A stretch of DNA of 37,566 nucleotides from a virus (taxonomy: Duplodnaviria; Caudoviricetes), in IMG/VR virus record IMGVR_UViG_3300033067_000376, positions 1-37,566 of that record; one strand, given 5' to 3'. The stretch's first letter is position 1. Each line of letters begins with the position of its first letter. Made by a program: the position numbers and the translations under genes. This document shows, piece after piece, positions 15,307 through 34,489 of this stretch. Below the pieces are notes generated by a model. That model saw nothing but the letters and a program-made list of their open reading frames with translations, had not been told where the DNA came from and did not search any database.

Positions 15307-16017
15307 ATGCCTATTACTTCAAATACTGTCTACGGCATCATTAATGATGCAATGCACGATGCGGGATTTTTAGAAGAGGGTGAAGATCCTAACAGTGAAC
15401 AGCTATCCTCAAACTTCCGTCGACTAAATGATATTATTAACCTCTGGCAAACCCAGGGGTTAAAGCTTTTCTTGCTTGAAGAACTTACAATTCCTCTAGT
15501 AGCTGGTACGAGTACTTACTCAATTGGCCCAGGTAAGACCATTAACATGGTTAAGCCTTCGAGGATTCTTGATGCTTATGTTAAGACTCCCGACAATGTA
15601 AAGCGTCCGTTAATTGCTATCTCGTGGAAAGACTGGAACTTACTTCCTACTGTAAGTGCTGGGACGATCTCATCTTACTTTGTAAACAAACTCTCCGATT
15701 ACCTAGAGGTTCGCTTCTGGAATACTCCTAGCACTTCAGAAGCGTTGAACACTGTAGTTGCCCTGATTCAAAGGGAGGTTGTTAATCCTATTAATCTGCA
15801 AGATGATATGGACTTCCCGCAAGAGTGGCGAATTGCTTTGCGTTGGGGTTTAGCTGATGATATTTGTAGTGGGCAGCCGGCTGCTATTATGGATCGCTGC
15901 GCTCAACGGGCTGCGATCTATAGGGATGCCTTAGAATCTTGGGATGTTGAGGATGCTTCGACGAGCTTTGCCCCAGATCGTAGGAGTGGTTATCATGCAG
16001 CTGGGAGATTTGTCTAA
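15307..16017 (+). CDS. Head-tail adaptor (P22 gp4-like)
   Basis: Helical N-terminus (LNDIINLWQ) and C-terminal DFPQEWRIALRWGLA; directly upstream of the tail hub. Confidence 0.65.
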   Translation: MPITSNTVYGIINDAMHDAGFLEEGEDPNSEQLSSNFRRLNDIINLWQTQGLKLFLLEELTIPLVAGTSTYSIGPGKTINMVKPSRILDAYVKTPDNVKRPLIAISWKDWNLLPTVSAGTISSYFVNKLSDYLEVRFWNTPSTSEALNTVVALIQREVVNPINLQDDMDFPQEWRIALRWGLADDICSGQPAAIMDRCAQRAAIYRDALESWDVEDASTSFAPDRRSGYHAAGRFV

Positions 16018-17444
16018 TGGCTAATCCTCAGGCTACACAACAGTGGGAGAGTGTAACACTTCCACCGCGATTACCTTTAGTAATCATTCAGTCAAACCGT
16101 GATGGGACTCTAAATAAGGACGCCAAGTTAGTTAATTGCTATCTTGAGGCAACTCAAGAAGGGGAAGCTAATATCTTTAAGCGTCCCGGTATTACTCAAA
16201 CAAGTGTTGTGTCAGCTAATGAAGTTGGAAATGGTGTGTTTTTCTGGAATGGGGATGTTTACTCTGTTTTTGGTAGTGTCTTTTACAGGAATGGTACGGT
16301 AGTTAGTGGTGTGGATAACACTGGTGGGGTGTATAGGTTTATTTCTATTCTTGGAGCAACCCCAAAGCTGGTGTTTAGTAATGGCAAAAAGGCTTATGCT
16401 TATGATATTGGCGGCGGACTATCCTCTGATTTACATACTATTGATGCAGACTACCCAACCACTACAGTAAAGGGTCTTGCCTACTTAAACGGCCCTGTCT
16501 ATGTTATGCAGCCTGAGGCAGTTATCTGGGGTAGTGCTATTAACTCAGTATCTGTCGCGGGTGACTGGGATCCGTTGAACTATCTCCGTGCTCAGATCGA
16601 GCCTGATGGTGGAGTGTTTCTGGCCAAGCAACTTGTTTATGTAGTGGCTCTGAAAAAGTGGACTATTGAATACTTCTTTGATGCTGGCCAGCCTACAGGC
16701 AGTCCCTTGCAGTCAGTGCAAGGTATGAAGGTTAACTATGGCTGTGCTAGTGCGGACAGTGTTCGTGCTATTAATGACGTTCTATTCTTTCTTTCAACAG
16801 ATCAGAACGCTTCATTACAAGTTTCCCAGCTTGACAAAGGTGCACACTCTGTTGTTTCAACTCCTGCTGTTGATAGATTGCTTTGTGATATTAATACTTC
16901 AGTTGTGTTCTCTTGGACGTTTAAGATCAATGGACACAGCTTTTATGTGTTGACTTTTAAGCAGTCTAATCTAACTTTAGTGTATGACGTAAACCAGCAA
17001 TTGTGGTATCAGTGGACTACAAGTAGTGGAAATTATCTACCCTTCGTAGACTGTACCTATGATGCTAGTGGGGAACACGTCTTACAACATGAAACTAATG
17101 GAGCGCTATATACTATTAGCAGCACAGATTACAAAGATGATAGTAATCCAATTGTTGTAGACATTATCACTCCTAGCTTTGATGCCCAAACCTTTCGCAG
17201 AAAGCATCTCAATATGCTGAAGTTTGTGGGAGACAGAGTTCCTGGAAGCGTTCTTCAAGTAAGGAAAACTGATGATGATTATCAAACTTGGAGTAATTTT
17301 AGGCGGGTTGATCTCAACCTTAAAGTCCCGAAACTTGTTAATTGCGGAACCTTTGTTCGACGAGCTTATCATTTGCGGCATACTGCTAATACTCCTTTTA
17401 GGATTCGGGCACTAGATGCTCAATATGATGTGGGGACGTTATGA
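16017..17444 (+). CDS. Tail hub/nozzle (P22 gp10-like DNA stabilisation protein)
   Basis: 475 aa beta-propeller-like; VSTPAVD, GHSFYVLTF, TLVYD....WYQW and DD.QTWS motifs. Confidence 0.75.
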   Translation: MANPQATQQWESVTLPPRLPLVIIQSNRDGTLNKDAKLVNCYLEATQEGEANIFKRPGITQTSVVSANEVGNGVFFWNGDVYSVFGSVFYRNGTVVSGVDNTGGVYRFISILGATPKLVFSNGKKAYAYDIGGGLSSDLHTIDADYPTTTVKGLAYLNGPVYVMQPEAVIWGSAINSVSVAGDWDPLNYLRAQIEPDGGVFLAKQLVYVVALKKWTIEYFFDAGQPTGSPLQSVQGMKVNYGCASADSVRAINDVLFFLSTDQNASLQVSQLDKGAHSVVSTPAVDRLLCDINTSVVFSWTFKINGHSFYVLTFKQSNLTLVYDVNQQLWYQWTTSSGNYLPFVDCTYDASGEHVLQHETNGALYTISSTDYKDDSNPIVVDIITPSFDAQTFRRKHLNMLKFVGDRVPGSVLQVRKTDDDYQTWSNFRRVDLNLKVPKLVNCGTFVRRAYHLRHTANTPFRIRALDAQYDVGTL

Positions 17445-17961: not shown

Positions 17962-18162
17962 GTGACTACATATGACACGAAGAAGATCTTGAGTGAGTTA
18001 TCTAAACATGAACTAAAGGATATCGTTAAGCTTGCGATTAAGGAATGGCTGGATGAGCAGGCTATGATATTTGGAAAAATGTCCCTTAAGTGGTTGTTCA
18101 GAGCTGGGGCAGCTGCCTTGTTGTTTTTTATCTTAATCGCACAAGGTTGGGTGCATAAATGA
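17962..18162 (+). CDS. Small membrane protein
   Basis: GGAG RBS; C-terminal hydrophobic helix. Confidence 0.55.
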   Translation: MTTYDTKKILSELSKHELKDIVKLAIKEWLDEQAMIFGKMSLKWLFRAGAAALLFFILIAQGWVHK

Positions 18163-18614
18163 GTGATTCACTTGTTATGCGTTTGGGAGTTACTCCAGAG
18201 TTTCTTGAGGGGATCGCTAACTCTCCGGAAGTTTTCCCTCATGTGACTATGGATGGTATAGATAAGATTGACCTGTCTACAGTTTGGAACGATTGCATTT
18301 CTGTAGAGTTTCCAACTGGAGGATTTTTGTTTCATAGGCAAGCGCCGGGCGTGTATGAAGTTCATACTATGTTTAAACCAAAGTCTATTGATGCCTACAA
18401 AGCCGCTTGCATAGCTGCTGACTATATGTTTAGTAATGATGCAACCCTTATTTTAACACAAGTTCCTAGCGGTAATGTGCCTGCTAGGAAGCTAACAGTT
18501 TTAATGGGATTTACTAAGTTCGCCGAGGGTACTATCCAACGGAATGGTAAATCTTTGGTATCTGAATATTTTGAATTACCTAAGCACGTCTGGAGGAAAT
18601 CACAATGCCAGTAG
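18159..18614 (+). CDS. GNAT-fold virion assembly protein (P22 gp14/T7 gp13-like position)
   Basis: YEVHTMF...T.VP..NVPARKL....GF...G is a GNAT-like C-terminal signature; precedes the ejection genes. Confidence 0.65.
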   Translation: MSDSLVMRLGVTPEFLEGIANSPEVFPHVTMDGIDKIDLSTVWNDCISVEFPTGGFLFHRQAPGVYEVHTMFKPKSIDAYKAACIAADYMFSNDATLILTQVPSGNVPARKLTVLMGFTKFAEGTIQRNGKSLVSEYFELPKHVWRKSQCQ

Positions 18615-19177
18615 CCGGTGCAGTCATTGGTCTTGCCACTTCTGTTTATAGTGCAAGCCAGGCGAAGAAACAACAGAAGAAAGCTCAACAGTTTGCTGAA
18701 CAGCAGATGGAGCAAATGGATCCCTTTGGAAAATATCGAGATCAATATGCTCAGAGACTAAATGCCTTTATGAGTGACCCTAGCTATTTAGAGAACACCG
18801 CTGCCTACAAAATGCGGCTTCAGGCGGCTAATAGATCAATGGCAGCCCAGGGATATACAGGGTCTGGGAATGGTACTATGGCAGCAGCTGAGGCAGCTTC
18901 CATGGCTTATCAGCAAGAGTTTGATAATCTAGCTATGCTTTCTGGCGCTACTAATGGGCAGTCTGCGAGGGCTAGTGCATATGGCACAGCTGCTGGCGCG
19001 ATGAGTCAAGCTAATGATAATTATCTTGGGGGCCTTGCAGGTGTTGCGAACAATCTAACTAACACTGCTACTATATTTGGTAACTCTTATGGTAAAACTG
19101 GTAGTGCTACTACAAGTATTGGTAGTTTTAATGCTCCTGTAGCTACGGGTAGTATGCCAACTGTTGGGCCTTATTGA
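18605..19177 (+). CDS. Ejection (DNA transfer) protein, small
   Basis: Hydrophobic N-terminus, A/Q/G-rich, AAQG..GSG motif; P22 gp7-like position. Confidence 0.65.
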   Translation: MPVAGAVIGLATSVYSASQAKKQQKKAQQFAEQQMEQMDPFGKYRDQYAQRLNAFMSDPSYLENTAAYKMRLQAANRSMAAQGYTGSGNGTMAAAEAASMAYQQEFDNLAMLSGATNGQSARASAYGTAAGAMSQANDNYLGGLAGVANNLTNTATIFGNSYGKTGSATTSIGSFNAPVATGSMPTVGPY

Positions 19178-19186
19178 GGAAGCGCT

Positions 19187-20530
19187 ATGTCTTATGATCT
19201 CTCCACTATTGGTTTGAAGGGTATTGAGGCTGCGCAGAACACTTTAAACTCGATTGCTAATCGCTCAGCATTAGAAGTTCAAACTGCAACAGCTCAGCAC
19301 AAGTTAGATGATGAATTACAAGAAGAATCCATTGCCCAGCGAGCGATGGATGCTTATAATCAGTTAAATATCTTAACACCTCAACAACAGCAAGACCAAG
19401 ATCAAGCACGGGATACACTAGATCAAAATGCTCAAACTGCTTTTAATAGAGTTGTGAGTGGAAAGCCTGGAGAGCCTAGTGCTAATGGTTTTCCTGAAGA
19501 CCCAGGCGCTCGTCTAGAGTATTTAGGTAATGCTTATCTTAGGGCTGGTATGACTGCTCGTGGGCAGGAGTCTCTAAAAGCTGCACAAGATTATCGGCAG
19601 GGAGATGCTTCAATTGAGCAGACGCAGTTAAGTAGTGCTAAGATTCGATTAGAGAATATGCACGCAACTGCTAACTTTGTAGCTAATCACATTGGACAGA
19701 ATGAGTCAGAGTTTAGACTCTTTCAACAAAATCTTCAGAATCCGCCTAACCAAGAGTGGCGACAGGTTCGGGCGAGTATTGGGGAACGTGAGACTGAGAT
19801 GTTGTTAGAACAACAGTGGACTCCAGATCTTCAAGCTTACTATGCCAGTACAGCCTTGAGCATAAAGGACAAGGCAGAATTAGCTTTGCAAAGTCAAAGT
19901 GCCCAGCAACGTCAGCGAGAACATGCAGACTTACAAGCTGACCGTTTAATGGGGCGGCAGCTACAGCAAGCCCAACTAACTGAAACTCAACAATATCATG
20001 CAAGACTCTCAAGTAATGCAGGGGGAAGGGCCGCAGCTGTTACACCGCCTAATGATAATGAACGTGGAGCTATTGCAGATGTTTTAAAAAGCTCTGGGAT
20101 TTTTTCAGATGCTGCGCTTGACGATAAAGGAAACTTTGCGGATTCAGGAACAGCAAACTCTTTTAACTTAGCAATACTTGATGTAGCTGGGCGAGTTCGT
20201 CAGATGCTTCCAAATTATCCCGGTAAGACTTATGAACAAGTTGCTCAAATTGCAGTAGCTGATATGCAAGTCTCTGGAGATCTTGTTTCGCATTACCGCA
20301 CATACCCAGATGAGAACAATGCAGTAGTTCCCGGAAGCCGAACTGTTGAGTTTAAGCAGCCTGGGAGTTTTAATAGACCCTTGGATTTACCAGCTGGTAG
20401 TGGGGAAGATTTTGAACAAGGCCTTAAACCTGGTAACTGGTATGTTACTCCAGGACAGACTCGTCCAAGTTATTGGAATGGAAAAAGCTTTACTAGAAAT
20501 GCTACGGCTCGGCAATCTTCCGATAATTAA
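19187..20530 (+). CDS. Ejection (DNA transfer) protein, medium
   Basis: Q/A-rich helical protein of 447 aa, GAGG RBS, between the small and giant ejection genes. Confidence 0.6.
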   Translation: MSYDLSTIGLKGIEAAQNTLNSIANRSALEVQTATAQHKLDDELQEESIAQRAMDAYNQLNILTPQQQQDQDQARDTLDQNAQTAFNRVVSGKPGEPSANGFPEDPGARLEYLGNAYLRAGMTARGQESLKAAQDYRQGDASIEQTQLSSAKIRLENMHATANFVANHIGQNESEFRLFQQNLQNPPNQEWRQVRASIGERETEMLLEQQWTPDLQAYYASTALSIKDKAELALQSQSAQQRQREHADLQADRLMGRQLQQAQLTETQQYHARLSSNAGGRAAAVTPPNDNERGAIADVLKSSGIFSDAALDDKGNFADSGTANSFNLAILDVAGRVRQMLPNYPGKTYEQVAQIAVADMQVSGDLVSHYRTYPDENNAVVPGSRTVEFKQPGSFNRPLDLPAGSGEDFEQGLKPGNWYVTPGQTRPSYWNGKSFTRNATARQSSDN

Positions 20531-20535
20531 CTTCC

Positions 20536-20550
20536 ATTCATAATGTGAAT
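20536..20550. promoter_or_regulatory. Palindromic box, copy 5 (ATTCATAATGTGAAT)
   Basis: Occupies the short gap just upstream of ATG 20557 of the giant gene. Confidence 0.75.
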
Positions 20551-20556
20551 ACCACT

Positions 20557-23500
20557 ATGACCCCAGAAGAGATGCTCCGTTTACGAGATCAAGCCCGCGC
20601 ACAGGGGACAGCGGCACAAGATTCTAGTGATACAACTCAAGTAAAGTTTGCTCACCGGCAGAATGCTTGGGATACTGGAAGTGTTTTTCCACAAAGTGTT
20701 CCAGAGACTTCCAGTACCACAGATAACTCTTCCAGCAATATACCTGTTCGACTGCCGAGTGGTAGTCTTTTGCCAAGCGATCCAGAGGTTAAACAAGTTT
20801 TAACTGATACGGCAAATCGCTATAACATTAATCCAGCTTTGTTGCTCGCCGTAGCGCAACAAGAGTCTAGCTATGACCCTAATGCTGTTGGGCCGCAAAC
20901 TCGTTGGGGTCATGCATCTGGGATGTTTCAATTCTTACAGGATACTGCTCGATCCCTTAAGATTGATCCACTGAACTGGCGGCAGGCAGCAGATGCGACG
21001 GCCAGGAGTTTAGCGGAGCAGATCGCTAAGGGTGGAACTGACTGGGCAATTGCCACGCACTTTGCTGGAACTAACCCTGCAGAGCATGGGCCAAAGACTC
21101 GCAGGTATGTTGCTGAGGTTTCGGCAAAAGCTGCTGTTATTGCTAATGAGCTGGGGATTGACTATACTCCGACGAATACTACCCCGGAGTTATTGCGTAG
21201 ATTGCAGAGTGGGCAGCGCCCGAGTGACACAAGCAGTCGTACTCCACAAGCCCGGCAAGCCCCCCGGGCATCCGCTACACCGCAGAGTGGTGAGTCTCCC
21301 AGTAATTGGCATGCACCTATGTTGTACCGCCCTGGGCAGGCAGCACAGCAAACTCCAACAACTCGGCAATCTCAGCCGCCTCGGCAGTTACCTAGGCAAG
21401 TTGCCCCTGACAATATGTCGCCTGCTCAAATGCTTGCGCTTAGGAATGGGCGATCCCCTCAAGCTACCAGTCCGACAGATACTCAAGGTAATCGGGAGAG
21501 TCTTTGGGAAACCCTTAGCCGGAATGTTAGTGAAGCCATCAATCCAGATGATGGGGATGATGGGGATGATTCTTGGCCTTTTGCTACACCGATAGTTAAT
21601 GCAATTGAGCGTGGTTGGCATGGTGTTCAGGGGCTGATTAATCGACAGACTAATCAAGTTACTCTAAGTGATGCAGACCTACAGCGTAGGTTTGAGGATC
21701 AGCAGAGTTCGATGTTCTCCCTTAAGCCTAGGTTTAGGGTCGGGGATAATCCTATTTATATTAATGGACAATCTCCCACTCCCAGTAGCTTAAACTTATC
21801 TGCCCCCATGATGAACTGGGATCAATTCCGTGCCTCACCTTTTTATAAAAGTTGGGAAGCCCAGAATAGAACTATTGAGATGTCAACAGACTCTCAAGCT
21901 GATCAACGACAACAGTGGCTCGATCGTGTTAGGAAAGATCCCACAGCAATTAGTATGTTGCCAGCTAGGTTCTCTGACGTTAGGGATCAAGTGCTAGCTG
22001 AACGCGCACAAGCTCATGGGTTTGCTCCTAGTGGAACAGTTACTGGTAGCCTTCAGCGATTTATTGAGGGATTTCCGAATCCCTTAGACGCTTTGTTAGG
22101 GCGATCCATGCCTGTTAATGCGGTAAATTATCTGGCTAATATCCCGGAATTAGAGAGGAAACGCTTTGAGGAAGGGCGTGAGATTACTAATGCCCTTAAT
22201 GCAGTTAATCATCCTGATCAGTACTCTGCAGAGGATCTCCAGCACTATAATGGAATGCTTCAAGATTGGCGACAAAAAACTAATCCTAATGTAGTCCATG
22301 CTTGGCAAAACTTTTATCAAGCAGCTCAGGCCGATCCAGGAAATACGGCGTTAGGTTTTGCTACGTCTATTATGGCGGATCCTTACTTGCTAAAGATTCC
22401 TGCTGGACTAGGCCTAACGCCCATTCGCGGAGTTAGAAACCTTGCAGGAATTACTACTCCGATGACTCGGGGACTTGCTGGCGCGGATGCGATCATAGAC
22501 GGTACAATCTCTACTGCGGCTGTTAATACTGCCATTGGTATTACATCTGATCTTGCTACAACTGGGCAGGTTAATACTGAGAATGCCCAGCTTAGTGCTG
22601 CACTTGGTGCACTTCTTGGCGCTGGAGGTGGCGGGCTTGCATTCTTGCATGGTGCGCGTGCTCACTTGGCTAATATAGATGAGGCTCGTGCAAGTGGGAA
22701 GCTTGATGAACTTTTGCAAGCGAAGGCTACTGGGGAAGTTGCAGTAGAGAATGCTATCGAGACTCTGCGAACTCCTGAAAAGGATCCTCGATTCGCTGGG
22801 GAGAGGAATCCTACAATCACTCCCATGCAGCGTAGGATTGCAGAACTTACTGGCATACCGCTGCATGATGCAGAAGTTCCCGGTTTAGGGACTGCTGCCG
22901 GTGATGTCTATGGGCCACAGGTAAAGTCTGGTCGGAAAATTCCTACGGAAGGGGTTGAGCATTTTGAAACTACTGGTGCGGGTCGTCGAGATGAGATGAT
23001 TTCTCAGTGGATTAAGAATCGTAGGGCGCAGGTAAAAGAAGCTTTCACAAATGAGGCTGACTACCATCAGTATCAACAGTACGTAGCTGCGGAAAGGCTA
23101 AGGCTTGCTCAAGAAGCTGCGGCTAGGGCACAACAACAGGAAGCTGCGCAAGCTCAAGCTCGGCAAGCTGACTTGGAAAGAACCAACAGGTTCCAGCAAG
23201 AGTTTGAGGCCGCAACTCGTCAACGCGATGAGCAGCTTGCCCGTGGTGAGGTTGAGAACGCTCATGGAATTGCATTAGCTGAACAAGCTCGGCGAGACAG
23301 CGCGGAACAACTTAATGCTTCAGAGTTATTTGATGCATATACCTCACAAGATCAGGCAGCTATCCGGCAAGCTAAGGCTAACATTGATCGAAGGAATGGT
23401 CGTGGTAGATTTAATCAGTTAGGTGAAACTACTACTGACTATGCTACCGCCCTTGGATTGGTAGGCGCAGGGGCGTTAGCAGGTTCAGTACTTTTCCCGC

Positions 23501-26500
23501 AAGATCGGGAACGCGGAGCTATTGCGGCGGCATTACTTCTGGGACTCCCCGCTGCCGTTTTAGGCCTACGTGGGCGAATGGGCTCAATTGAATCCCGTGA
23601 GTTCAGGTCTCCGGCGTTCCAAGAGGGTGCATTAAAATTAGCTGGAAAGCTTCCTAAGGAAGAAGCTGCCCGAGTTTACAGGACACATCAAGACGTTTTA
23701 AGCGATGCTTTACAAGGAAAGTTTATTAACCGAGATGTTGATAGTACAACTATTACGCATCCAGCTACATACTCTGGAAGATTTATTCCACAATTTGCTG
23801 AAATTGCAAATATGCTAGGGGCTAAATCTGTCATTGATACTATGGCAGGGGTAGGCAACATTGGACGTATTAAAGAGTTTGGTTATAGTGGTAAGATTAT
23901 TGCTAATGAACTTGAACCTGAGTGGGCAGCCCTTCATGGGAAGCATGGAGTTGATAAGAGTATTACTGGAGATGGTAGAAACATCCCGCAGGTTAAGACT
24001 AATAGTGTCGATTTAGGTATTGTCTCCCCACCTTATGGAAATGGTTTAGCTGAAAGTAGGCTTAATGGAAATCTTCGGAGTCTTACTTATGCAAACTCCC
24101 TTGGAAGAAAACTTACTGAGGGCAACGGCGGTGGGATGAAGTGGGGGCAGGCTTATAGGGATTTACATGAAGGCATCTATAAAGAACTTTATCGAATCAT
24201 CAAGCCCGGCGGACATGCTTTAATTAACTCAAAAGACTTCATCAAAAAAGGTGAGGTTGTTAAAGTTAATGATTGGCATATTAGGGCTATGGAAGCCGCT
24301 GGATTTAAGTTACTTTCTAGAGATCAAATTAAATCTTCTGGACTTATCACAGGGGCTGTAAAGCGGCCTAGGGTCGGCTATGAAGAGTTCATGCTTTTCA
24401 GTAAACCAGATAAAACTGGTAAAATCCCGGCTAAACAACGTGGCGAGATCAGTGAGGAGATGCGAACGATTCTAGGTCGTGCAGCCATCGCTACTACCCT
24501 TGCTGGTGCTGGGTATGCAATGAGTCCAGAAGAGCATAGGCTTGCTGGCGGAATCTTGGGTGGGTTAGCTGGACTGGTTGTTCCTCTGGGCGGGGGTAGT
24601 CGCGGCAGTATTCTTAGCTACTTCCATAACATTGGCGCGATAGATGCCGATGGGCTTCCTCGTGGGATTAGGACATTTGGCGGGAAGATTGCCGATGCGG
24701 CAGAAGATGCTAGGCTTAAGGCTAGGGATGACGCTTGGATAAAAGCAGCAGCTGCCGGGGATCAGCGAGCTTTCGAGAATCTTTATCGTGCATACTCTGA
24801 TACAACACGACGCTATGTTGATAGGATGATTCGTTCTAGCAGCACCCGTATTGCTAATGATGCTGATGGAGTTATGAATGAAGCATTCTTCAATGTCTAT
24901 GAGTGGATGCAAGAAAACCCTGAGGTTCCGATAGATAACTTTAGAGACTTCGTTGGGCAATCGGCTAAGAATGTTCTGCTTAATGCACTGAAGGCAGAGC
25001 GTACAATTAAGCGGGATATGCCTACAGTGTCTGAGGCAGATGCTAACGCAGAGCTAGATGCTCAAGGAAAGCCTGCAGCGATTGGTAGTAGCATTATTGA
25101 TCAGACTCCGGGAACCGACCCCGTAAGTAGGAAACTTATCATTGATAATATAGGCGAGAATCCTGAGAGTGTCGCTATGAGGGATCAGCTTAAAGATGTT
25201 ATTCGAAAAGCTGTGGAAACTCAATCAGACATTAACCAGAAAGTTTTCATCATGCGAAACTTTGATAACATGTCTCCTCAGGAAGTAGCAGATGCCCTCG
25301 GGATTAGTAAGAATAATGTTCAAGTAATCGACAATCGTGTAAAAACTCGGGTGCAGAATGCTATTGTAGAAAAGATCCCAGAAGTTCGTTCGATGTTAGA
25401 GGATCGGTATGCTCCTGGACATGAGCCTAAGCCAAAGGTTAGAGGACCGGCTGGACAAAGGGGATCGGCAACTACTGGCGATATGGCAACTGTTGCTACC
25501 CTAGCAGCGGCTGTCGGCGCTGCCTCGTATTTTATGAGTGACGAGAATACTTGGGGCGCTCTAGTCTCAGGTGGCATTGCTGCTGCGCTGACGGCAGTTG
25601 CACGAGGAAAGTCTGGAAGGTTTAGCGGGGCAACTCGTGCGGCGGTGGCGCTTCGTGCTGTAGATTGGCGACTTAAAGAGTTTGGTGGGCATTTCTATGG
25701 TATGGCCAAGGAACATGGAATGCTTGAGTCTCAAGCAATTGCTCACTATAACAATGTTACTGCACCCTTCTCAAAGTGGCTTAATAGTTTGAAACCTCAA
25801 GTTCGTGCGATTATGGTAGAAGCTTTGTCTACCCGAGATGAGGGAATTATTAATGGGATGTTGGAGCATCTAGGCGGGCAGACTGCTGTTGAGGCATTTA
25901 AGCCTGTTCGGGCTATCCTTAACAACATTGAGGATACCCTTGTTTCACTGGGAATTATTAAGAAGTCCGAGGTTGATTACTTCCCCTTCCGAGTCAAAGA
26001 CTTAGAGGGTTTGCGAAATGCCTTGGGAATTGAGCAGAAGGACTTTATTACCGCAGCTCTTAAGGCTGCCGATGATAAGATGTTCAAGAACTTAAACCGG
26101 CACCTTACTCAAATTGAGCAAGATGTTATTGTGAATAAGCTTCTTGAACCTTACTTAGGCTCTCGCATAGGTCCGCAGATGCCAGGCTTTGCACGGGCAC
26201 GGACTATTAAAACCATCCCGGAGAGTTTGCAACGATACTATCATGACCCAGTTACTACTCTGAATAGCTATGGCCAGCAGGCAATTAAATATATTCAGAG
26301 GGCAAAGTTTTTTGGCAAACACCTAAAGATGGTAGATCAAGAAGGTAAAAAGGTTGTAGACATTAGCGCTTCCATAGGTGAGCTTACTAGGTCACTTCAT
26401 GAAGCTGGAAAACTTACTGAGCAACAGACGTTTGAACTTGCGTCTATGTTGCAAGATAGGTTTAATGGTGGAGAGCAGAGTAGTGGTACGATTGTGAGAG

Positions 26501-27603
26501 AAATTAAGAACTGGTCAACTGCTTCTATGCTGGGGCAGTTTGTTTTCTCCGCCGTAGCACAGGTTAATGATTTAGTTTGGCAGATTTACCGCCACGGCCC
26601 TAGAGCTTCTATTGAGACTGCTATTAGGTTAGCTATCAACAAACCACTTGTTCGGTTAAAGGATTTTGGAATTACCGAGCACATGGTGCATGAGTACATT
26701 TCAGAAGGACTATCCTCAAAGGTTGTAAAGAAAAGTTTGCTTGTGTCTGGCATGAGCTTGATGGATAATGCAGCTAAGAGTTTTGGTCTAAATGCTGCAC
26801 TCATCGAGTATAGGAATATGGTAAAGAGTGGGGTGGATGGAAAGCCTAATGTTAAAGGTGAAGCTAGGTTACGTGAGCAGTTCGGCGGATACTTCCCTGA
26901 TAAGATTGAAAAGATTATTAGTGATTTAAGGGAAGGAAAAATTACCCCAGATACAGAGCTTCTCGCTTGGACAGACCTCACGGATACTCAACCGCTGACA
27001 GCTTGGGAACTTCCGCAGTTGTACCATCACTTACCTAATGGAAGAATTATTTATCACTTGCAAACCTTTAACATTCGCGCAGGTAACTTGATCTATGAAG
27101 AAGCCATTAAGAACATTACTTCCGGGAATGTTAAGCAAGTGATGAAGGGCCTACGAGCATTGACTGGCTTTGCTGTAGTGTTCGGTGCTGGTGGAGTTGC
27201 TGGAGATAAGATTAAAGACTTGTTGAGAGGTCGAGAGATAAAGCTAAACCCCTGGGAGATTCCCTTGAACTTGGTGCAAGCGGCTGGTGGGAATCTTTAT
27301 AACTATCGAACCCATAGAGCTAACACACCAATGGAAGCTGTTATTAATAGGCTTCCGCCAGTGATAGGGATGGCTGAGTCTGCTTACCAAGATCCTACAA
27401 CGCTTATTAGGAGGGTTCCCGCAGTAGGTGAGTGGATTTATAATCTGAATCGTCCAAGGCTACAAGCGTGGAATAAAGATAGGGTTAGTAAATTTGATCA
27501 CTCAATTACAATTAATGTTGAAGGGCGAGACAGCTCAAGTGGTTCAAGCAGTTCAAGCAGGAATAGTCGAAATAGTAGGCGCAACACTAGGAGGCATTAC
27601 TAA
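20557..27603 (+). CDS. Giant multidomain ejection protein: lytic transglycosylase + DNA methyltransferase + ECF-like sigma factor + helical C-terminal domain
   Basis: SLT (AVAQQESS...ASGMFQF, ~20779-21156); MTase (HPATY, VIDTMAGVG, SPPY, IIKPGG, ~23750-24410); sigma regions 2 and 4 (GDQRAFENLY...; SPQEVADALGIS..NV, ~24727-25365). ATG 20557 is preferred to GTG 20545. Confidence 0.85.
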   Translation: MTPEEMLRLRDQARAQGTAAQDSSDTTQVKFAHRQNAWDTGSVFPQSVPETSSTTDNSSSNIPVRLPSGSLLPSDPEVKQVLTDTANRYNINPALLLAVAQQESSYDPNAVGPQTRWGHASGMFQFLQDTARSLKIDPLNWRQAADATARSLAEQIAKGGTDWAIATHFAGTNPAEHGPKTRRYVAEVSAKAAVIANELGIDYTPTNTTPELLRRLQSGQRPSDTSSRTPQARQAPRASATPQSGESPSNWHAPMLYRPGQAAQQTPTTRQSQPPRQLPRQVAPDNMSPAQMLALRNGRSPQATSPTDTQGNRESLWETLSRNVSEAINPDDGDDGDDSWPFATPIVNAIERGWHGVQGLINRQTNQVTLSDADLQRRFEDQQSSMFSLKPRFRVGDNPIYINGQSPTPSSLNLSAPMMNWDQFRASPFYKSWEAQNRTIEMSTDSQADQRQQWLDRVRKDPTAISMLPARFSDVRDQVLAERAQAHGFAPSGTVTGSLQRFIEGFPNPLDALLGRSMPVNAVNYLANIPELERKRFEEGREITNALNAVNHPDQYSAEDLQHYNGMLQDWRQKTNPNVVHAWQNFYQAAQADPGNTALGFATSIMADPYLLKIPAGLGLTPIRGVRNLAGITTPMTRGLAGADAIIDGTISTAAVNTAIGITSDLATTGQVNTENAQLSAALGALLGAGGGGLAFLHGARAHLANIDEARASGKLDELLQAKATGEVAVENAIETLRTPEKDPRFAGERNPTITPMQRRIAELTGIPLHDAEVPGLGTAAGDVYGPQVKSGRKIPTEGVEHFETTGAGRRDEMISQWIKNRRAQVKEAFTNEADYHQYQQYVAAERLRLAQEAAARAQQQEAAQAQARQADLERTNRFQQEFEAATRQRDEQLARGEVENAHGIALAEQARRDSAEQLNASELFDAYTSQDQAAIRQAKANIDRRNGRGRFNQLGETTTDYATALGLVGAGALAGSVLFPQDRERGAIAAALLLGLPAAVLGLRGRMGSIESREFRSPAFQEGALKLAGKLPKEEAARVYRTHQDVLSDALQGKFINRDVDSTTITHPATYSGRFIPQFAEIANMLGAKSVIDTMAGVGNIGRIKEFGYSGKIIANELEPEWAALHGKHGVDKSITGDGRNIPQVKTNSVDLGIVSPPYGNGLAESRLNGNLRSLTYANSLGRKLTEGNGGGMKWGQAYRDLHEGIYKELYRIIKPGGHALINSKDFIKKGEVVKVNDWHIRAMEAAGFKLLSRDQIKSSGLITGAVKRPRVGYEEFMLFSKPDKTGKIPAKQRGEISEEMRTILGRAAIATTLAGAGYAMSPEEHRLAGGILGGLAGLVVPLGGGSRGSILSYFHNIGAIDADGLPRGIRTFGGKIADAAEDARLKARDDAWIKAAAAGDQRAFENLYRAYSDTTRRYVDRMIRSSSTRIANDADGVMNEAFFNVYEWMQENPEVPIDNFRDFVGQSAKNVLLNALKAERTIKRDMPTVSEADANAELDAQGKPAAIGSSIIDQTPGTDPVSRKLIIDNIGENPESVAMRDQLKDVIRKAVETQSDINQKVFIMRNFDNMSPQEVADALGISKNNVQVIDNRVKTRVQNAIVEKIPEVRSMLEDRYAPGHEPKPKVRGPAGQRGSATTGDMATVATLAAAVGAASYFMSDENTWGALVSGGIAAALTAVARGKSGRFSGATRAAVALRAVDWRLKEFGGHFYGMAKEHGMLESQAIAHYNNVTAPFSKWLNSLKPQVRAIMVEALSTRDEGIINGMLEHLGGQTAVEAFKPVRAILNNIEDTLVSLGIIKKSEVDYFPFRVKDLEGLRNALGIEQKDFITAALKAADDKMFKNLNRHLTQIEQDVIVNKLLEPYLGSRIGPQMPGFARARTIKTIPESLQRYYHDPVTTLNSYGQQAIKYIQRAKFFGKHLKMVDQEGKKVVDISASIGELTRSLHEAGKLTEQQTFELASMLQDRFNGGEQSSGTIVREIKNWSTASMLGQFVFSAVAQVNDLVWQIYRHGPRASIETAIRLAINKPLVRLKDFGITEHMVHEYISEGLSSKVVKKSLLVSGMSLMDNAAKSFGLNAALIEYRNMVKSGVDGKPNVKGEARLREQFGGYFPDKIEKIISDLREGKITPDTELLAWTDLTDTQPLTAWELPQLYHHLPNGRIIYHLQTFNIRAGNLIYEEAIKNITSGNVKQVMKGLRALTGFAVVFGAGGVAGDKIKDLLRGREIKLNPWEIPLNLVQAAGGNLYNYRTHRANTPMEAVINRLPPVIGMAESAYQDPTTLIRRVPAVGEWIYNLNRPRLQAWNKDRVSKFDHSITINVEGRDSSSGSSSSSRNSRNSRRNTRRHY

Positions 27604-27881
27604 TGGGACAAGCTGACTTTTTAAAACTTGGTGACTGGAATGCTAATTGTGCAGAGTGTGGAAGGAAGTTTAAGGCTTCCACACTTATCAGGCACTGGAA
27701 AGGGTATTATGTTTGTAAGGAGCATTGGGAAACGCGTCATCCACAGGACTTTGCAAGGGGTAGTTCAGACAATCAAGCTGCTCCGTTTGTTCAAGAACTT
27801 CCAATTCCAACTTTTGTAGAAGGTTCACCTAGCTCAACAATTCCAAGTCCTTCAGACTATCCAATTCATGGAGTTGATTAA
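27603..27881 (+). CDS. Small Cys/His (Zn-finger-like) phage protein
   Basis: CAECG...VCKEHWETRHPQ; coupled start and stop on both sides. Confidence 0.65.
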   Translation: MGQADFLKLGDWNANCAECGRKFKASTLIRHWKGYYVCKEHWETRHPQDFARGSSDNQAAPFVQELPIPTFVEGSPSSTIPSPSDYPIHGVD

Positions 27882-29232: not shown

Positions 29233-30435
29233 TTAATTGCCAATCCAAGTGTACAACTTATCTGCCTCACTGACTAGTAGTTTAATCTGAAGCTTACCCA
29301 TTTGTTGTAGGGTGACTTCAATGTTAGCTAAGGTGTAGGGATCAATGTCTCGGTAGAACATTTGAAGCACTTTCTTTCTAGTAGTCACACCCATTTGCTG
29401 AATGTAGTTAGCAATAATATCAGTTTCTTCACTTGCCCGTGCCCTGCCAAGTCCACCAAAGGTCTTGGCCATATGAACTTCCGCGCTTTCCAGCAAGCCT
29501 TTTGCCTTATAAAAATCCACCTCTGTCAACTTAAGAGAGTCATCACGGGCAGCACTACATAAGAGCATCAGCTTTCGCAGGTGAGTTGCTCGGCGCTCAC
29601 AGTAACCAGCAAATCGCTTATCCTCAACAGCAGGTTTCCCAGCACTTAGCTTTGAGTCTTGGTCTATGTACCAGCTTACATAGGCGTCCTCGCCCTTTTG
29701 ATCGAATGTCATCTCACCGGCGAGATTAGATATTCGTTCCAAATCCTTTACCAGCTTTTCTCCAAGCTCCCTGGTAGCCTGGTCAATGACAAACTTTGGA
29801 ACAATCTTTCTTTTCTTTTCCTCAACAATGAAGATTACTCGACTAGTAAATCCACCTCCGAGAGCTTCTTGTGGAATCATACTCTGAATCCAGTCCGGAG
29901 CAGTCCCGCCAATTAAGTTAAGACAAAGTCCTTGCAGGGAGTCCTTACCACGGCCAACAGTCTCATACTCCCAATCATCTTTTGAATCATACCAGTCTGT
30001 TAGGTTGGATAGGTAGGCAATGTCACCTTGCCCGAGGAAGACACTAAGCTCTTCAGAGAATGCTGTTACCGAACAGTGGAACTTGATCTTCTTATCAACA
30101 GGATCCTCAAAGTTTTTACTTGCACGCTTCATAGCCAAGATCATAGCCTGCCGGCCGGAGGAACTCTCTGGAACCACAGTAATCCCCGGAGTTCTCTTAA
30201 GCATGTCCTTTGCAATACCAATAGCTGTGCCCTTTCGAGTTCGGCCACTTGGCCCTATAAGAACAACGTACAAATTTGGGTAGATTGTTTCTGCTAGTCC
30301 CCATTGCAGGTAGACTCGTCGTTGTAAAGCTCCTGCAATTACGGATAGACCGCACCAAGTGTGGTAGCTAACTGGGCTCTCAGTGCTATCTGTGTAAGTC
30401 AGGTAGCTGTCAAGCCAGTTGGTTAACTCCCGCAT
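29233..30435 (-). CDS. P-loop ATPase, putative replicative helicase (DUF3987/YfjI-like)
   Basis: PNLYVVLIGPSGRTRKGT (Walker A), FSEEL (Walker B), GGFTSR (arginine finger); adjacent to PolA. Confidence 0.7.
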   Translation of the reverse strand: MRELTNWLDSYLTYTDSTESPVSYHTWCGLSVIAGALQRRVYLQWGLAETIYPNLYVVLIGPSGRTRKGTAIGIAKDMLKRTPGITVVPESSSGRQAMILAMKRASKNFEDPVDKKIKFHCSVTAFSEELSVFLGQGDIAYLSNLTDWYDSKDDWEYETVGRGKDSLQGLCLNLIGGTAPDWIQSMIPQEALGGGFTSRVIFIVEEKKRKIVPKFVIDQATRELGEKLVKDLERISNLAGEMTFDQKGEDAYVSWYIDQDSKLSAGKPAVEDKRFAGYCERRATHLRKLMLLCSAARDDSLKLTEVDFYKAKGLLESAEVHMAKTFGGLGRARASEETDIIANYIQQMGVTTRKKVLQMFYRDIDPYTLANIEVTLQQMGKLQIKLLVSEADKLYTWIGN

Positions 30436-31945
30436 CTTTCCATCCTTCCAGTGCAGTTAGAAACTGTTCATGGGATTCTATGTCCAACATTCCAGTTGGA
30501 TTCCGGATCTTGTGCCTCTCACCCCAGTTTAGGCCAAACTTAAAATCACTAGCAATCTTAAAGGTTCGCCCACTATAGGTGATAGGAGGACTGGTATAGG
30601 CAACAACCTTTTCAATAAACTCTTTGAACGACTCTGGGTTTTTCAGTACATTTACAGGGACTTGCATTAACACTGAGTCATGAACTTGCGTAAGCACATC
30701 AATGTTAAAGCCTTTACTTCCACACAGATCAGAGTCTTGATAGATGGCAACCATGCCACTGTTCAAAGAATCAACTACCGTACTCTGTGGAATCATGGCA
30801 TAGGCACTTTTCCACAAGTCATCGCCCCACTGTCCCATAAATCTAACTGAGCGCCCGAAACAATTGGTGAGGGTGCGGGTGGCACTGAGTTCTCGTTTAA
30901 CTTGCTCATACCAAACTCTGATGCCGGGATAAATCTGGTGGTATAGTGAGACAATTCGCTTTGCTTCAGGTATTTCAATTTCGTTAATAAGTGCGAAACC
31001 ATTAGGCCCTTCATCATAGTTAAGACCATGGTTGGACTTTTTGCCACATTGCCGCAATGACATTGTGCGAGGCCATCTGGCGTCATAGATCTCTGACAAC
31101 TCACGTTGCCGCAACTGCCTAATAAAATCTGCATCAGTGGAGTGTCCAATTAGTGTGCCCTCGACTTTAATAATCCCAGGATCAATCCCGAACATTAGGC
31201 TGGCAGTATGAGTGTGAACGTCGATGCCCTTCTCGACAGCAGCAATCATGTTAGCATCACCGCTGGCATAAGCTACAACAACCCACTCAGCCTGCCGCTT
31301 GTCAACCTCAACAAAGACATAACCATCATCAGCCACGATGAACTTCTTAAACTCTTGCGGTAGATTCTGTAAGTTTGTTCCGGTGCCAAAGATAGTTTTA
31401 GAACTTGACAACCTACCAAACTTAGTCCCACGAGGATTAAAAGAACACCTAATTCGAGAGTCCTTATCAAACTCCAGATTCAGGTAGGTTCCGCTAAGTT
31501 TTTTCAATCCCCTGATTTCTTGCACCAGCTTTGCTTGGTGAAGCCCGGGTTGCTTAGCTGTGCCTCGAACTAACCGTTGCAACGCCTTATCATCGACTGT
31601 AGCATTTCCAACCTTGTTTGTGTAAGGTTTGTATCCAAGTTCTTTGTAGAAGTAGTCTTGACAATCTTTTGGGCTTAAAGGATTCAGTACTCGACCGCAA
31701 GCCTCATTAAGCTCAATTTGTTTTTTGGCTATATCATCTTGAACGTCTTGCCTAGTGCTCGCCAGCGCACGCATGTCAACCTTAATGCCACGAGTTTGCA
31801 TGAACATCAGCACAGGAAAGAGTTTCATCGTTAAGTCTACGGCTGGCTTAAACTGATTAAGCTCATGCCAGAAGCGTTCGTATATCTCTAAAGTACAAGC
31901 CGCGTCAAGGGCAGCATACTTTAGAAAGTCCTCAGACATTTTCAT
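30410..31945 (-). CDS. polA: DNA polymerase family A, C-terminal subunit (ExoIII motif + polymerase domain)
   Basis: YAALDA (ExoIII), GRLSS, NLQN, motif A DKRQAE, motif B RQCGKKSNHGLNY, motif C QVHDS; GGGAG RBS before ATG 31945. Confidence 0.9.
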   Translation of the reverse strand: MKMSEDFLKYAALDAACTLEIYERFWHELNQFKPAVDLTMKLFPVLMFMQTRGIKVDMRALASTRQDVQDDIAKKQIELNEACGRVLNPLSPKDCQDYFYKELGYKPYTNKVGNATVDDKALQRLVRGTAKQPGLHQAKLVQEIRGLKKLSGTYLNLEFDKDSRIRCSFNPRGTKFGRLSSSKTIFGTGTNLQNLPQEFKKFIVADDGYVFVEVDKRQAEWVVVAYASGDANMIAAVEKGIDVHTHTASLMFGIDPGIIKVEGTLIGHSTDADFIRQLRQRELSEIYDARWPRTMSLRQCGKKSNHGLNYDEGPNGFALINEIEIPEAKRIVSLYHQIYPGIRVWYEQVKRELSATRTLTNCFGRSVRFMGQWGDDLWKSAYAMIPQSTVVDSLNSGMVAIYQDSDLCGSKGFNIDVLTQVHDSVLMQVPVNVLKNPESFKEFIEKVVAYTSPPITYSGRTFKIASDFKFGLNWGERHKIRNPTGMLDIESHEQFLTALEGWKDAGVNQLA

Positions 31946-32148
31946 TAGTCGCAAACTCCCGAAGGGCAGCCGGTTTTAATACTCTGGCCATAAGCTTTAT
32001 AAGCGGTGTAAGCTCCAAGAAAACTCTTGTATGGCCCAATAGCATCATCACCAGACTCATTCCAGAAGTAGTAATGGTTGTCCAAAAGCCCCATGTCTGT
32101 GAGTGCTTGGTAGTTTTCAAGTCCTTTGTTTACAAGAAAAATATTCAT
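31945..32148 (-). CDS. Small hypothetical protein (67 aa) between the two polymerase halves
   Basis: AAGGA RBS; ATGA and TAATG couplings on either side; YYFWNE...GPY. Confidence 0.65.
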   Translation of the reverse strand: MNIFLVNKGLENYQALTDMGLLDNHYYFWNESGDDAIGPYKSFLGAYTAYKAYGQSIKTGCPSGVCD

Positions 32149-33176
32149 GAGTTTTCCTTGATGTTAGTAAACTTCGCCAAATCCTTCCAGTATTCCTGAG
32201 ATCCGCAGTAGATGCTGCCAAGGAAGCCAAGCCCCTTTTGTAACTCAGGATACATGCAAGAATGCCCAATCATAGTATCTCGGATTTCTCCAGCAATTAA
32301 AAGCCCATACCGAGCCAGCATGAACTGGATGTCGAAGATTCCATTTTGCAAAACTTTAATGGTATTAGGATTCCCTAGGAGTCTGTCGAGCCTTCGCCAG
32401 ATTACAAACTCCTCCTCAAGAGTCCACCTATCTGCAATAGGAATCACGCAAGCAACACTAGGATCAATGGAAAGATTAATACAGCTTACTTCATAGTTGA
32501 TTACTTCGATATCAACTGACAGTGGTTTGTTAGGCTGGCTCTCAAAGTAATCCAGCCAACTTACAGCTTCCTCAAGACTTGCGAAGTTATAGATTAACTT
32601 TCTGTCTGGCCGCCGAAGCTCGGGGAACAAACTTTCTTGCTTAGCTTTCTTAAGATCACAAGTAATCAGGTGTCGATAGATATACATTCCCCTAACTGCC
32701 TGGCTTGGAGAAAACGTCGGGATCACCTTAACACAACGTCCTAAACCCAAACTAGGAAACACATACCCACGCTTAGCACTGACCTTGCTAATCCCGCATA
32801 CAGCCGCACTGGCAGCAGCCCCGCAGGTAACTATCACATTACCGTCAAAATCTTTTAACTCTTCCTGTAAGGCACTAACTGCTTCCTGTCCTGCTGCGGT
32901 AAACTTTCCAGTTCTCTCAGAAAAAAGGTCTGGCCTAGCTCCCTCGGGAGTTGGTCGGGCAGCTTTATAACTTTTGAATATATTAGTCAAATACACCTCG
33001 CCCCGGATTAGTTGAGCAAGGTGTAAGCACTGAGAGAGTACTGTTCCAGCAGTTCCCTGAAACGGCCGCAATACTTTATCGTCATAAGCTGAGGAGTAGT
33101 CACCTATGATGGCAATCTTCGCAGAAAGATCCCCCTCGGGTTTGACCACCCTATCAGCCTTAAAAGGAATAAACAT
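32145..33176 (-). CDS. DNA polymerase N-terminal subunit: UDG-family-4-like domain + 3'-5' exonuclease (ExoI/II)
   Basis: EGDLSAKIAIIG...PFQGTAG..L...YLTN (UDG fold); SVDIE (ExoI), QNGIFD (ExoII), DTM. Confidence 0.8.
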   Translation of the reverse strand: MFIPFKADRVVKPEGDLSAKIAIIGDYSSAYDDKVLRPFQGTAGTVLSQCLHLAQLIRGEVYLTNIFKSYKAARPTPEGARPDLFSERTGKFTAAGQEAVSALQEELKDFDGNVIVTCGAAASAAVCGISKVSAKRGYVFPSLGLGRCVKVIPTFSPSQAVRGMYIYRHLITCDLKKAKQESLFPELRRPDRKLIYNFASLEEAVSWLDYFESQPNKPLSVDIEVINYEVSCINLSIDPSVACVIPIADRWTLEEEFVIWRRLDRLLGNPNTIKVLQNGIFDIQFMLARYGLLIAGEIRDTMIGHSCMYPELQKGLGFLGSIYCGSQEYWKDLAKFTNIKENS

Positions 33177-33178
33177 AA

Positions 33179-34489
33179 TTACTCCGAAGCAAAGAGTTTC
33201 TTTGTGTCCTCTTCTACTGCCAGCAAGAACTTATCTTTATAGCTTCCATCAAGGTCAAACCCAAAGCCGTGCATCCCGAGATTATAAACAGCTCGTAAAG
33301 TAGCACCGCTCCCCAGGAAAGGTATAAAAACATTAGACATCCCGGCAACCAGCGTTCGGAAAATCTCTTCAATAAGGGCCGTCGGCCGCTGAGTAGGATG
33401 ATACTTGCGAGACTCAGGAGAAAAACTAAAGACGTTGCTCCTACCGCGTTCCACCATAACAGGCTTGCCCTTTCGGCAAAGATAGAAAGGCTCATAGCAT
33501 CGGGCATAGTAAAGCTCCGGTTGCATAGTTTGACCATTCGGCTTCACCCACAGAGCAGGAATCTCGTCAACAAGCCAGCCGGCAGACCTCAAACTTTCCA
33601 GCACCTCAGCCTGCCACGTAGGGCCGAACCAAAACACTAACCAACAATCCTTTCCTGCAACGCGATAAAGTTCTTTGGTTAGGTTGTCCAAGAAACCCTT
33701 ATAGGTTTCCGAACTAACTTCCTTGTAGTCATCAGCCGCGCTGCCTGACTTTTGCGCTCCAAGATCAATTCCATAGGGCGGATCACACTCAATCAAAGAA
33801 ATGTTACCACTGGACTTTAGCTTAGCCATCCCAGTAAACACATCCCCGACTCGATAATTTTCCATAGCTATTTTAAGCGTATCAGCTATGCCCTTATCAA
33901 GACCCTTTGCAGGAGCCTGGAGCTTGGCATCTTGACGCTTTCGCATCTCAGAAACCAGTGCATGTTCTTCGAGTTTCTTAATCATTTTAAAGGCATCATC
34001 AGCAGTCTTGGCCTCGCCAAGTGCCGGCATTGCCTTAATAGCATTGGCCAACTGGATGTCTTTGTTAGTAATCCCAACACTCATCTCAAGAAGGTCAGCC
34101 GTTTTTTGCTGATTCCATCCAGGGTTTTTCTTGCGGTAGAGTTCGTCAATCTCCGCAGTCAGTTTAGCGCGCTCTTGCCAAGTAAAGTCTTTGCGAAAGA
34201 CATTCTCCATCAACTCAATTTCTTTTGAGTCCAGCAGGTCAGAACTGTCACGCAAGATAGCTGGGATACTTTCAAGCCCCAAGTCTGTGCAAGCCTGAAA
34301 GCGCCGTCCGCCAGCAAGCAGAACGAGATCAGATGTCAGAGTGATAGGTTGCAGGATTCCCTTAGCTTTGATGCTTTCCTTTAGAGCTTCCAAGTCTCCA
34401 AAGTCTTGCCGAGCACGGTCTTGAACAGTAATATCAGAGAGCTTCACATGCTTCAGCTTATCCTTCCGCTGTCCCTCAATCTTTTGCAT
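33179..34489 (-). CDS. ParB/Srx-domain + HTH + amino-DNA methyltransferase fusion
   Basis: LKESIK..GILQPI...LAGGRR...EN..RKD (ParB); QQKTADLLEMS (HTH); DPPY, HPTQRP, PFLGSG (beta-class MTase). Confidence 0.85.
   Translation of the reverse strand: MQKIEGQRKDKLKHVKLSDITVQDRARQDFGDLEALKESIKAKGILQPITLTSDLVLLAGGRRFQACTDLGLESIPAILRDSSDLLDSKEIELMENVFRKDFTWQERAKLTAEIDELYRKKNPGWNQQKTADLLEMSVGITNKDIQLANAIKAMPALGEAKTADDAFKMIKKLEEHALVSEMRKRQDAKLQAPAKGLDKGIADTLKIAMENYRVGDVFTGMAKLKSSGNISLIECDPPYGIDLGAQKSGSAADDYKEVSSETYKGFLDNLTKELYRVAGKDCWLVFWFGPTWQAEVLESLRSAGWLVDEIPALWVKPNGQTMQPELYYARCYEPFYLCRKGKPVMVERGRSNVFSFSPESRKYHPTQRPTALIEEIFRTLVAGMSNVFIPFLGSGATLRAVYNLGMHGFGFDLDGSYKDKFLLAVEEDTKKLFASE

Follow-up and report, generated by a model that had tools for sequence, protein, structure and literature searches.

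A probable giant podophage-type ejection protein with swappable cargo, including an ECF sigma domain, between QxG-hairpin joints

To our knowledge, phages begin early transcription either with the host sigma70 or with a whole polymerase that is injected (N4, crAss-like). In the N4/DEV type, this whole polymerase is described as fused within the largest ejection protein, held at the inner membrane and starting early transcription (PMC13434306, PMC11445570). Recruitment of the host RNA polymerase is ascribed (PMC13434306) to T7 gp16, a protein with an N-terminal transglycosylase, hydrophobic segments, and a basic C-terminus (PMC8954989). Other long phage-encoded chains include the phage-type polyvalent proteins (Iyer et al. 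2017, PMC5512222), where the word "sigma" occurs 0 times in the main text, and the DarB-like proteins, which are reported to need a helicase (PMC6630229). Phage sigma factors are treated as ordinary genes in the account given by PMC7824862, and cleavage of bacterial giants has been proposed with no motif of the QxG-hairpin type (bioRxiv 2023.11.21.568195).

The locus described here lies in a podophage-type record, 83% complete, with structural genes on the + strand and replication genes on the - strand; we use "the window" for the whole stretch of DNA analysed (37,566 nucleotides, IMG/VR record IMGVR_UViG_3300033067_000376). The single ORF of ~2350 aa reported in a first-pass annotation is borne out, its start at 20557 being an ATG four codons inside a GTG-initiated frame. 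The gene and its upstream neighbours are arranged as follows.

15307-16017, upstream of the tail hub, SU10-type adaptor (family match)
16017..17444, + strand, tail hub (Phage_stabilise; family match)
18159..18614, + strand, 151-aa gene in the GNAT slot, without a family match of its own
18605..19177, + strand, first (small) ejection-slot gene, 190 aa, no family match
19187..20530, + strand, second ejection-slot gene, 447 aa, no family match
20545..27603, + strand, giant ejection-type polyvalent protein, an open frame of 2352 aa from GTG (2348 aa from the ATG at 20557)

This order of adaptor, hub, small genes, and giant is kept across the mapped whole relatives. The giant had been placed third in the ejection slot, after the hub, a GNAT gene, and two smaller genes; this position holds, except that the window's 151-aa gene has no GNAT match, a GNAT being recognised only at the corresponding position of the closest whole relative, where the gene is 147 aa long. 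Directly 3' of the giant gene lies a Cys/His-rich 92-aa gene (27603-27881, +), 50-66% conserved in most relatives and without a family match. Elsewhere in the window, a GroES co-chaperonin gene (11031-11357, +) sits between portal and scaffold and is kept in relatives and in the Alcaligenes phage QDWS535, a sulfotransferase-like gene (5551-6093, +; PHROG E 5e-5) lies among the tail-fibre genes, and short tandem units near the contig start (85-280; GGAACA every 9 bases, TTGTNCCAA every 10, with poly-C/poly-T runs) possibly represent a genome end or packaging region.

In Pfam searches of the whole giant protein, SLT came first, followed by N6_N4_Mtase and then by sigma regions; the layout is as follows.

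20767..21159, + strand, SLT lytic transglycosylase domain (aa ~75-205), with a catalytic-type QESS at aa 106-109
21580..22704, + strand, conserved helical region of the N-terminal part, with a hydrophobic stretch (aa 683-701) at its end and without a family
23416..23568, + strand, joint 1, QLG plus hydrophobic hairpin (aa 958-1008), with a second QxG-like site, QEG/AL, at 23620 (aa 1026)
23428-24451, + strand, optional 340-codon cassette made of joint 1 and the methyltransferase (MTase), an indel relative to the homologue P0002
23740..24420, + strand, circularly permuted amino-methyltransferase, with HPA at 1072, motif I at 1098, and SPPY at 1161
24436..24588, + strand, joint 2, QRG plus hydrophobic hairpin (aa 1298-1348), with a second site, NIG/AI, at 24628 (aa 1362), which is QxG/AI in relatives
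24721..25374, + strand, ECF sigma module, with region 2 at aa ~1393-1490, region 4 at aa ~1538-1606, and a -35 helix diverged from that of sigmaE
25456..25608, + strand, joint 3, QRG plus hydrophobic hairpin (aa 1638-1688), with no second site
25642..27519, + strand, conserved C-terminal core of ~630 aa, shared by compact proteins of 900-1100 aa that have no joints
27556..27600, + strand, Arg-rich C-terminal tail

The fusion is not a mis-assembly, because SPPY is carried by all 11 of the 11 long members examined of the 90% cluster and an independent 41-kb contig covers 22500-26495 unbroken; the occurrence of SLT, MTase, and sigma in one ORF is confirmed and real. The SLT match (aa 89-140, E 8.6e-10) lies above the Pfam cut-off, and the helical region behind it gave weak structure-atlas leads to LPD22 (0.88) and P22 gp16 (0.87), both below the 0.9 mark. 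The core's nearest named clusters are LPD39/LPD38 (also atlas leads), and the last 15 residues bear a net charge of at least +3 in 38 of the 68 family proteins. Searches against the PDB matched neither T7 gp16 nor any other solved ejection protein. Pfam detected no named LPD or polyvalent domain in the window's giant, these being present in relatives, and no zincin MPTase or other peptidase in the giant or in the relatives' cargo (MPTase is common, not universal, in polyvalent proteins); likewise, no protease was recognised among the ORFs examined in the window or its relatives. Identification as a putative ejection protein, as first proposed, is well supported by the slot, the N-terminal SLT, the hydrophobic segments, and the basic tail, and on these sequence features the giant is very probably packaged and injected.

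A search with the C-terminal 640 aa yielded 67 homologues of 1376-3026 aa, and locus scans added the compact forms, which share the core and lack joints; viral contigs scanned with the core had at first given no match. No cultured phage with this protein was found: cultured-phage matches were limited to SLT and MTase patches, and in the cultured Alcaligenes phage QDWS535 the slot is present, with no match to core, repeat, or sigma. Three related phage contigs are binned in MAGs, from which no host was obtained, and public records label some relatives "sigma-70 like domain", without the context. In the long proteins, each cargo sits between copies of a repeat, Q-x-G followed by two Gly/Ala-rich hydrophobic helices (starting at aa 958, 1298, and 1638 in the window). 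These QxG-hairpin joints, overlooked in the first-pass annotation, are the new part of the protein together with the sigma cargo. Clustering of 102 inter-repeat stretches (duplicates included) separated 62 sigma domains, 32 members of a group including PcfJ-like sequences, 3 MTases, 3 long mixed stretches, 1 ART-PolyVal, and 1 unknown, sigma being the commonest cargo and MTase a rare one. The position of the MTase block holds PcfJ-like or ADP-ribosyltransferase cargo in other relatives, and ART-PolyVal, PBECR5, and LPD domains are carried by relatives' giants, so that the chain of unlike effector domains varies among relatives, as is typical of polyvalent proteins. Alignment of homologues, suggested earlier as a check for cargo swapping, gave a positive answer, with an MTase indel and PcfJ-like, ART-PolyVal, or sigma alternatives between repeats. 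A sigma module is also found in the giants of L334 and L338 (genomes G023 and G029), whose C-terminal part has no match to the window-family core; by its sequence distribution, the module evidently moves between different giants as well.

The 162 distinct joint copies in the family share a consensus of Q/E-x-G, then S/K/E, A/I/V, D, and P (Q in 81% and E in 10%, G in 97%, D at +3 in 67%, and P at +4 in 60%). The flanks of the hairpin are rich in K/R (21.9% and 17.9%) and its loop is rich in D/E (27.5%), against a background of 13% each. Basic flanks and an acidic loop form the pattern of hairpins with both ends in the cytoplasm, and under the positive-inside rule the cargo is therefore predicted to be cytoplasmic; the hairpin shape is read from hydropathy only, because the aligned fold failed there (pLDDT about 35). 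A second motif, [QEN]xG[ASK][AIVL], occurs 5-35 residues past the hairpin in 39 of 86 pre-cargo cases, in 0 of 72 pre-core cases, and in 1 of 86 control windows, which makes these sites, found after pre-cargo and never after pre-core hairpins, candidate cut sites. Sites kept on both sides of the cargo, with the core left anchored, would be the expected look of protease sites, and cutting at QxG may free the cargo, a prospect we rate slightly below an even chance. Joints and sigma also go together: in a set of 171 entries, including duplicates and fragments, all 78 sigma-bearing ones have a joint repeat, and 72 of the 93 sigma-less ones have none.

One alternative for the joints is that they mimic class III signal peptides (background in PMC2910488), with the host prepilin peptidase cutting after each QxG to leave membrane-anchored units. 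This would fit the basic stretch, the G at -1, and the hydrophobic helix behind it, as well as the E/D at +5 in 90 of 158 repeats, which agrees with the loose (A/G)X4(D/E) motif given in PMC3244431. A strict class III test ([GAS], four uncharged residues, and [DE], then 14 uncharged residues, near the N-terminus) gives a different picture, since the strict PilFind core is present in 11 of 158 repeats and the core plus 14 uncharged residues in 5 of 158. Moreover, D at +3 and P at +4 prevail, no pilin Pfam family was matched by the 11 repeats searched, no membrane helix follows the second QxG sites, and the sites are internal, not N-terminal. From the low strict count, the internal position, and the lack of a pilin match, we do not class the joints as class III signal peptides, and we consider prepilin cutting quite improbable.

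The MTase is recognised by its homologues rather than by its own Pfam score, the N6_N4_Mtase match (aa 1155-1291, E 2.9e-5, 24.5 bits) lying below the 26.7 cut-off. Ten stand-alone homologues of 223-287 aa retain HPA, DxxxGxG, ExEPEW, and SPxY, in an order permuted relative to beta-class N4/N6 enzymes, and their profile matches N4/N6 DNA MTases (best E 3.6e-14) and also Trm14/Trm11-type RNA MTases. In the window's copy, the SAM-binding motif I and the catalytic SPPY are both intact, and no helicase partner was found in the giant by Pfam. The presence or absence of the MTase block is a clean indel of exactly 340 codons, bounded by two joint repeats: in P0002, which is 95-97% identical, the first QLGE runs directly into the second hairpin, with the MTase block alone missing and the junction at QxGE. 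The same net 1020-base skip was seen in contigs from 2 of 8 runs, both of one wastewater study, its short side being just 24 letters, and contigs of other runs contain the block; missing cover over the cassette in run X10 was not counted as evidence. DNA protection, as initially suggested, is thus plausible, yet tied to an optional cassette present in P0001, P0003, and P0004 only (3 of the 68 family proteins), and from its motifs the chance that the MTase methylates the incoming genome seems to us evenly balanced. A second MTase in the genome combines a ParB-like domain with a DPPY DNA methyltransferase (33179-34489, -) and is kept in whole relatives.

By sequence, the sigma piece is a whole ECF sigma domain. 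Sigma70_r4_2 (E 2.2e-5) and Sigma70_ECF (E 0.002) were both below cut-off in the whole-protein Pfam search, and on TIGR02937 (cut-off 42.9) the isolated piece reaches 69 bits, with regions 2 and 4, no region 3, and a family profile that matches AlgU/sigmaE at E about 1e-23. Folded from a single sequence, it reached a pLDDT of 43; in the aligned AlphaFold model, regions 2 and 4 are confident (pLDDT about 80-93), and the best Foldseek matches are the ECF sigmas SigH, AlgU, and sigmaE. The profile and fold searches originally recommended thus recovered the sigma fold (by profile, model, and Foldseek) as well as the MTase (by profile search). The domain is not an RpoE/sigmaE orthologue, as it scores 27.7 bits on the RpoE equivalog TIGR02939 (cut-off 236) and its -35 helix, ISKNNVQVIDNRV, is far from the sigmaE GTVRSR. 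No RNA polymerase or second sigma was found among the window's 39 ORFs, nor among 87 ORFs of three relatives.

We modelled the sigma with residues 1-340 of E. coli beta', used as a stand-in for that of the host. The predicted complex scored 0.73, against 0.13 for the best of 3 controls, the mark applied being one that 116 of 157 solved pairs attain, as do 2 of 215 mismatched ones; because comparable sigma-RNAP complexes have already been solved, this score expresses likeness, not binding. The runs share at least 52% of contacts, partner pLDDT is at least 72, and the modelled contacts join sigma aa ~1441-1453 to beta' 275-298, with the core-binding helix retained. The sigma fold, the beta' contact, and the membrane topology are all predictions; the sigma probably engages host RNA polymerase after entry. 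It is also the fastest-changing domain, with region 2 identities of 86/101 to P0002 and 29/101 to P0004, compared with 149/227 for the MTase and 354/614 for the core. Such rapid divergence fits an arms race and decay equally well, and together with the absence of the MTase cassette from a nearly identical relative it could suggest that the cargo is tolerated passenger sequence without a role; the fusion might even be an assembly chimera. We regard both as very improbable: the MTase is 66% identical against 48% for the whole protein and keeps every motif, sigma is in frame in 78 of 171 entries, and independent contigs span the fusion.

Candidate promoters for such a sigma were found in relatives. 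When the window and ten whole relatives were scanned for dyads without supervision, GGAAC-N17-GTCTA ranked first in G004 and G007 and close to first in G006, G008, and G009. GAACT-N16/17-GTCWAA occurs in 2-6 copies in 9 of 35 genomes, once in 4, and not in the other 22, with 2 matches overall for the reversed pattern across the 35. These sister-clade sites agree with the sigmaE consensus of GGAACTT-16-GTCAAA type as listed in PMC1312014, and sites lie mostly between early genes, in the early-gene sense. A GAACT..GTCTAA match before the capsid gene in some relatives, included in the raw counts of 1, was not taken as a promoter, being placed as coding sequence against a ribosome site. Among 25 genomes with both tests, 7 combine a fused sigma, a sigmaE-type helix (GTVRS, NTVRT, or GTIRS), and 2-6 sites; G036 has six sites but lacks a fused sigma; the rest, 11 that carry sigma (the window included) and 6 that do not, have 0-1. 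The 7 matching genomes fall in one terminase clade (in a tree built without G036) and therefore represent one evolutionary event, not seven. For this sister clade, we consider it quite likely that the fused sigma reads the promoters. The family A DNA polymerase, a single 820-850-aa gene in the sigmaE-promoter clade, is in the window split in two genes (30410-33176, -; 343 + 514 aa, with a 67-aa ORF between).

The picture differs on the window's side of the tree. The window has no strict sigmaE site (its early region being mostly missing from a record 83% complete), and the ten other sigma-bearing genomes on this side have 0-1, including G021 and G023 with sigmaE-like helices. De novo scans for another promoter motif in the window's clade gave nothing above shuffles, a weak test given that it missed the motif in G008 and that the window lacks much the greater part of its early region. 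A sigma70-type promoter is present in the window at 1219-1247. G029, which lies in the other branch from the seven matching genomes, pairs a diverged helix with 4 variant sites, CTTCC-N13-GTTGTCTAAG. The proposed redirection of transcription is therefore backed by the sister clade, with its fused sigmaE-type domain and sigmaE-type promoters, and not by the window, with no cognate promoter found and a diverged -35 helix; that the window's own sigma reads promoters is possible, if rather doubtful.

We also considered, and rejected as promoters of the sigma, a set of 17-bp palindromes: 15 of 25 genomes have them, 4 of these genomes carry no sigma, and every member of the sigmaE-promoter clade lacks them. 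In the window, TTCACA-N-TGTGAA (<=1 mismatch) lies at 445, 1383, 8480, 14237, 20537, 29214, and 35941 (7 copies, against 0.10 expected), at gene borders every 6-8 kb, one copy overlapping the GTG of the giant gene. Each of the 15 genomes has its own version in 6-11 copies, one of which we take to be near the bacterial parS consensus. The palindromes are likely operator or parS-like sites, with the ParB-MTase as a candidate binder.

For the window's lineage, a serious rival to promoter reading, though on the whole an unlikely one, is that the injected sigma acts as a decoy, occupying host core RNA polymerase or soaking up a membrane-bound anti-sigma (RseA/MucA type), so that host sigmaE would be freed for phage promoters or host transcription dampened. 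The window's clade combines a diverged -35 helix with a kept core-binding helix, no cognate promoter was found in it, and its sigma diverges rapidly; a membrane location would, in addition, place the sigma beside the anti-sigma. G036 points the same way, as its giant (L360:12395-16141) has a PcfJ-like cargo reduced to a stub between joints and no sigma, and six sigmaE-type promoters remain, which suggests that host sigmaE may read such sites. A decoy would, however, leave unexplained why the sister clade keeps both DNA-reading parts along with the promoters, and why G029 couples a changed helix with a changed -35 element.

Timing offers another alternative, which, like prepilin cutting, we find weaker than the decoy. 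The giant gene lies within the late operon, G004, G006, G007, G008, and G009 each have one sigmaE-type site aimed at the structural side, and candidate cut sites flank the cargo on both sides; the sigma might thus boost structural-gene transcription in the virion-producing cell, where the MTase would mark progeny DNA before or during packaging, the cargo perhaps being trimmed and never injected. This seems improbable, since most sites lie among early genes, in the early sense, and a late-made sigma could not serve these first; fusion to an ejection protein with a membrane hairpin for each cargo would be needless, and a separate ParB-MTase gene is already in the genome.

On balance, we lean towards early action by an injected protein. 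The giant would be a gp16-type ejection protein, the largest of the phage, whose SLT cuts the cell wall and whose hairpins dip into the inner membrane and hold the chain there with the cargo on the cytoplasmic side. After entry, the cargo would refold in the cytoplasm, the sigma would bring host core RNA polymerase beside the entering DNA, and the optional MTase would mark this DNA against restriction. More tentatively, we propose that podophages lacking an RNA polymerase inject an ECF sigma that would turn the host polymerase to early phage promoters ahead of all phage expression and evade host anti-sigma control, entry perhaps being pulled by transcription. The joint would then be a general plug-and-cut unit that takes each cargo through the inner membrane and, by proteolysis on either side, releases it and leaves the core anchored. 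An injected sigma, if real, would be a third, minimal route to early transcription, for which the sister clade provides both the protein and named promoters. The joints, in turn, mark exact positions that bear on an earlier prediction, namely cleavage of polyvalent proteins into units, here in a family where no protease is recognised. They also point to a natural cassette with which proteins might be loaded into phage particles.

Among described systems, the polyvalent proteins of PMC5512222 resemble the giant as large virion-type chains with swappable effectors and lysozyme/SLT domains, and the cargo types of the window's relatives are the same; the window's giant differs in having no zincin MPTase or peptidase match and in cargo bounded by QxG-hairpin repeats. 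P1 DarB and the Bcep22-type DarB-like proteins, as presented in PMC6630229, are packaged giants with an N-terminal transglycosylase and a DNA methyltransferase, and the best SLT matches among cultured phages are DarB-like proteins. However, the window's giant is half as long, has no SF2 helicase or LPD36, adds a sigma, and carries its MTase as a small, permuted SPPY-type, optional cassette; lacking the MTase-SF2 helicase-LPD36 fusion, it is not a DarB-like antirestriction protein. The first-pass annotation knew of no characterised example of this combination of domains. Giants with SLT and MTase were already known, as is the polyvalent kind of ejection protein, and what is new is the sigma cargo, along with the QxG-hairpin joints; a mainly open-access literature search found no report of a virion-borne sigma, QxG-hairpin joints, or a prepilin-cut ejection protein.

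As in T7 gp16 (PMC8954989) and P22 gp16, the giant is encoded by the last and largest of three ejection-slot genes, begins with a wall hydrolase, contains hydrophobic segments, and ends in a basic tail, although it has no detectable sequence homology to them and holds inserted enzyme and sigma cargo. Its sigma resembles sigmaE/AlgU in consisting of regions 2 and 4 only and in its best profile and fold matches, and departs from them in its altered -35 helix and in its setting, flanked by membrane hairpins within a structural protein of a phage. The virion RNA polymerase of N4/DEV likewise places a transcription function inside the largest ejection protein, whereas the window's giant carries the promoter-specificity subunit only and the enzyme would be the host's. 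The giant may thus be a cheap stand-in for an N4-type virion polymerase, with the sigma brought and the enzyme borrowed.
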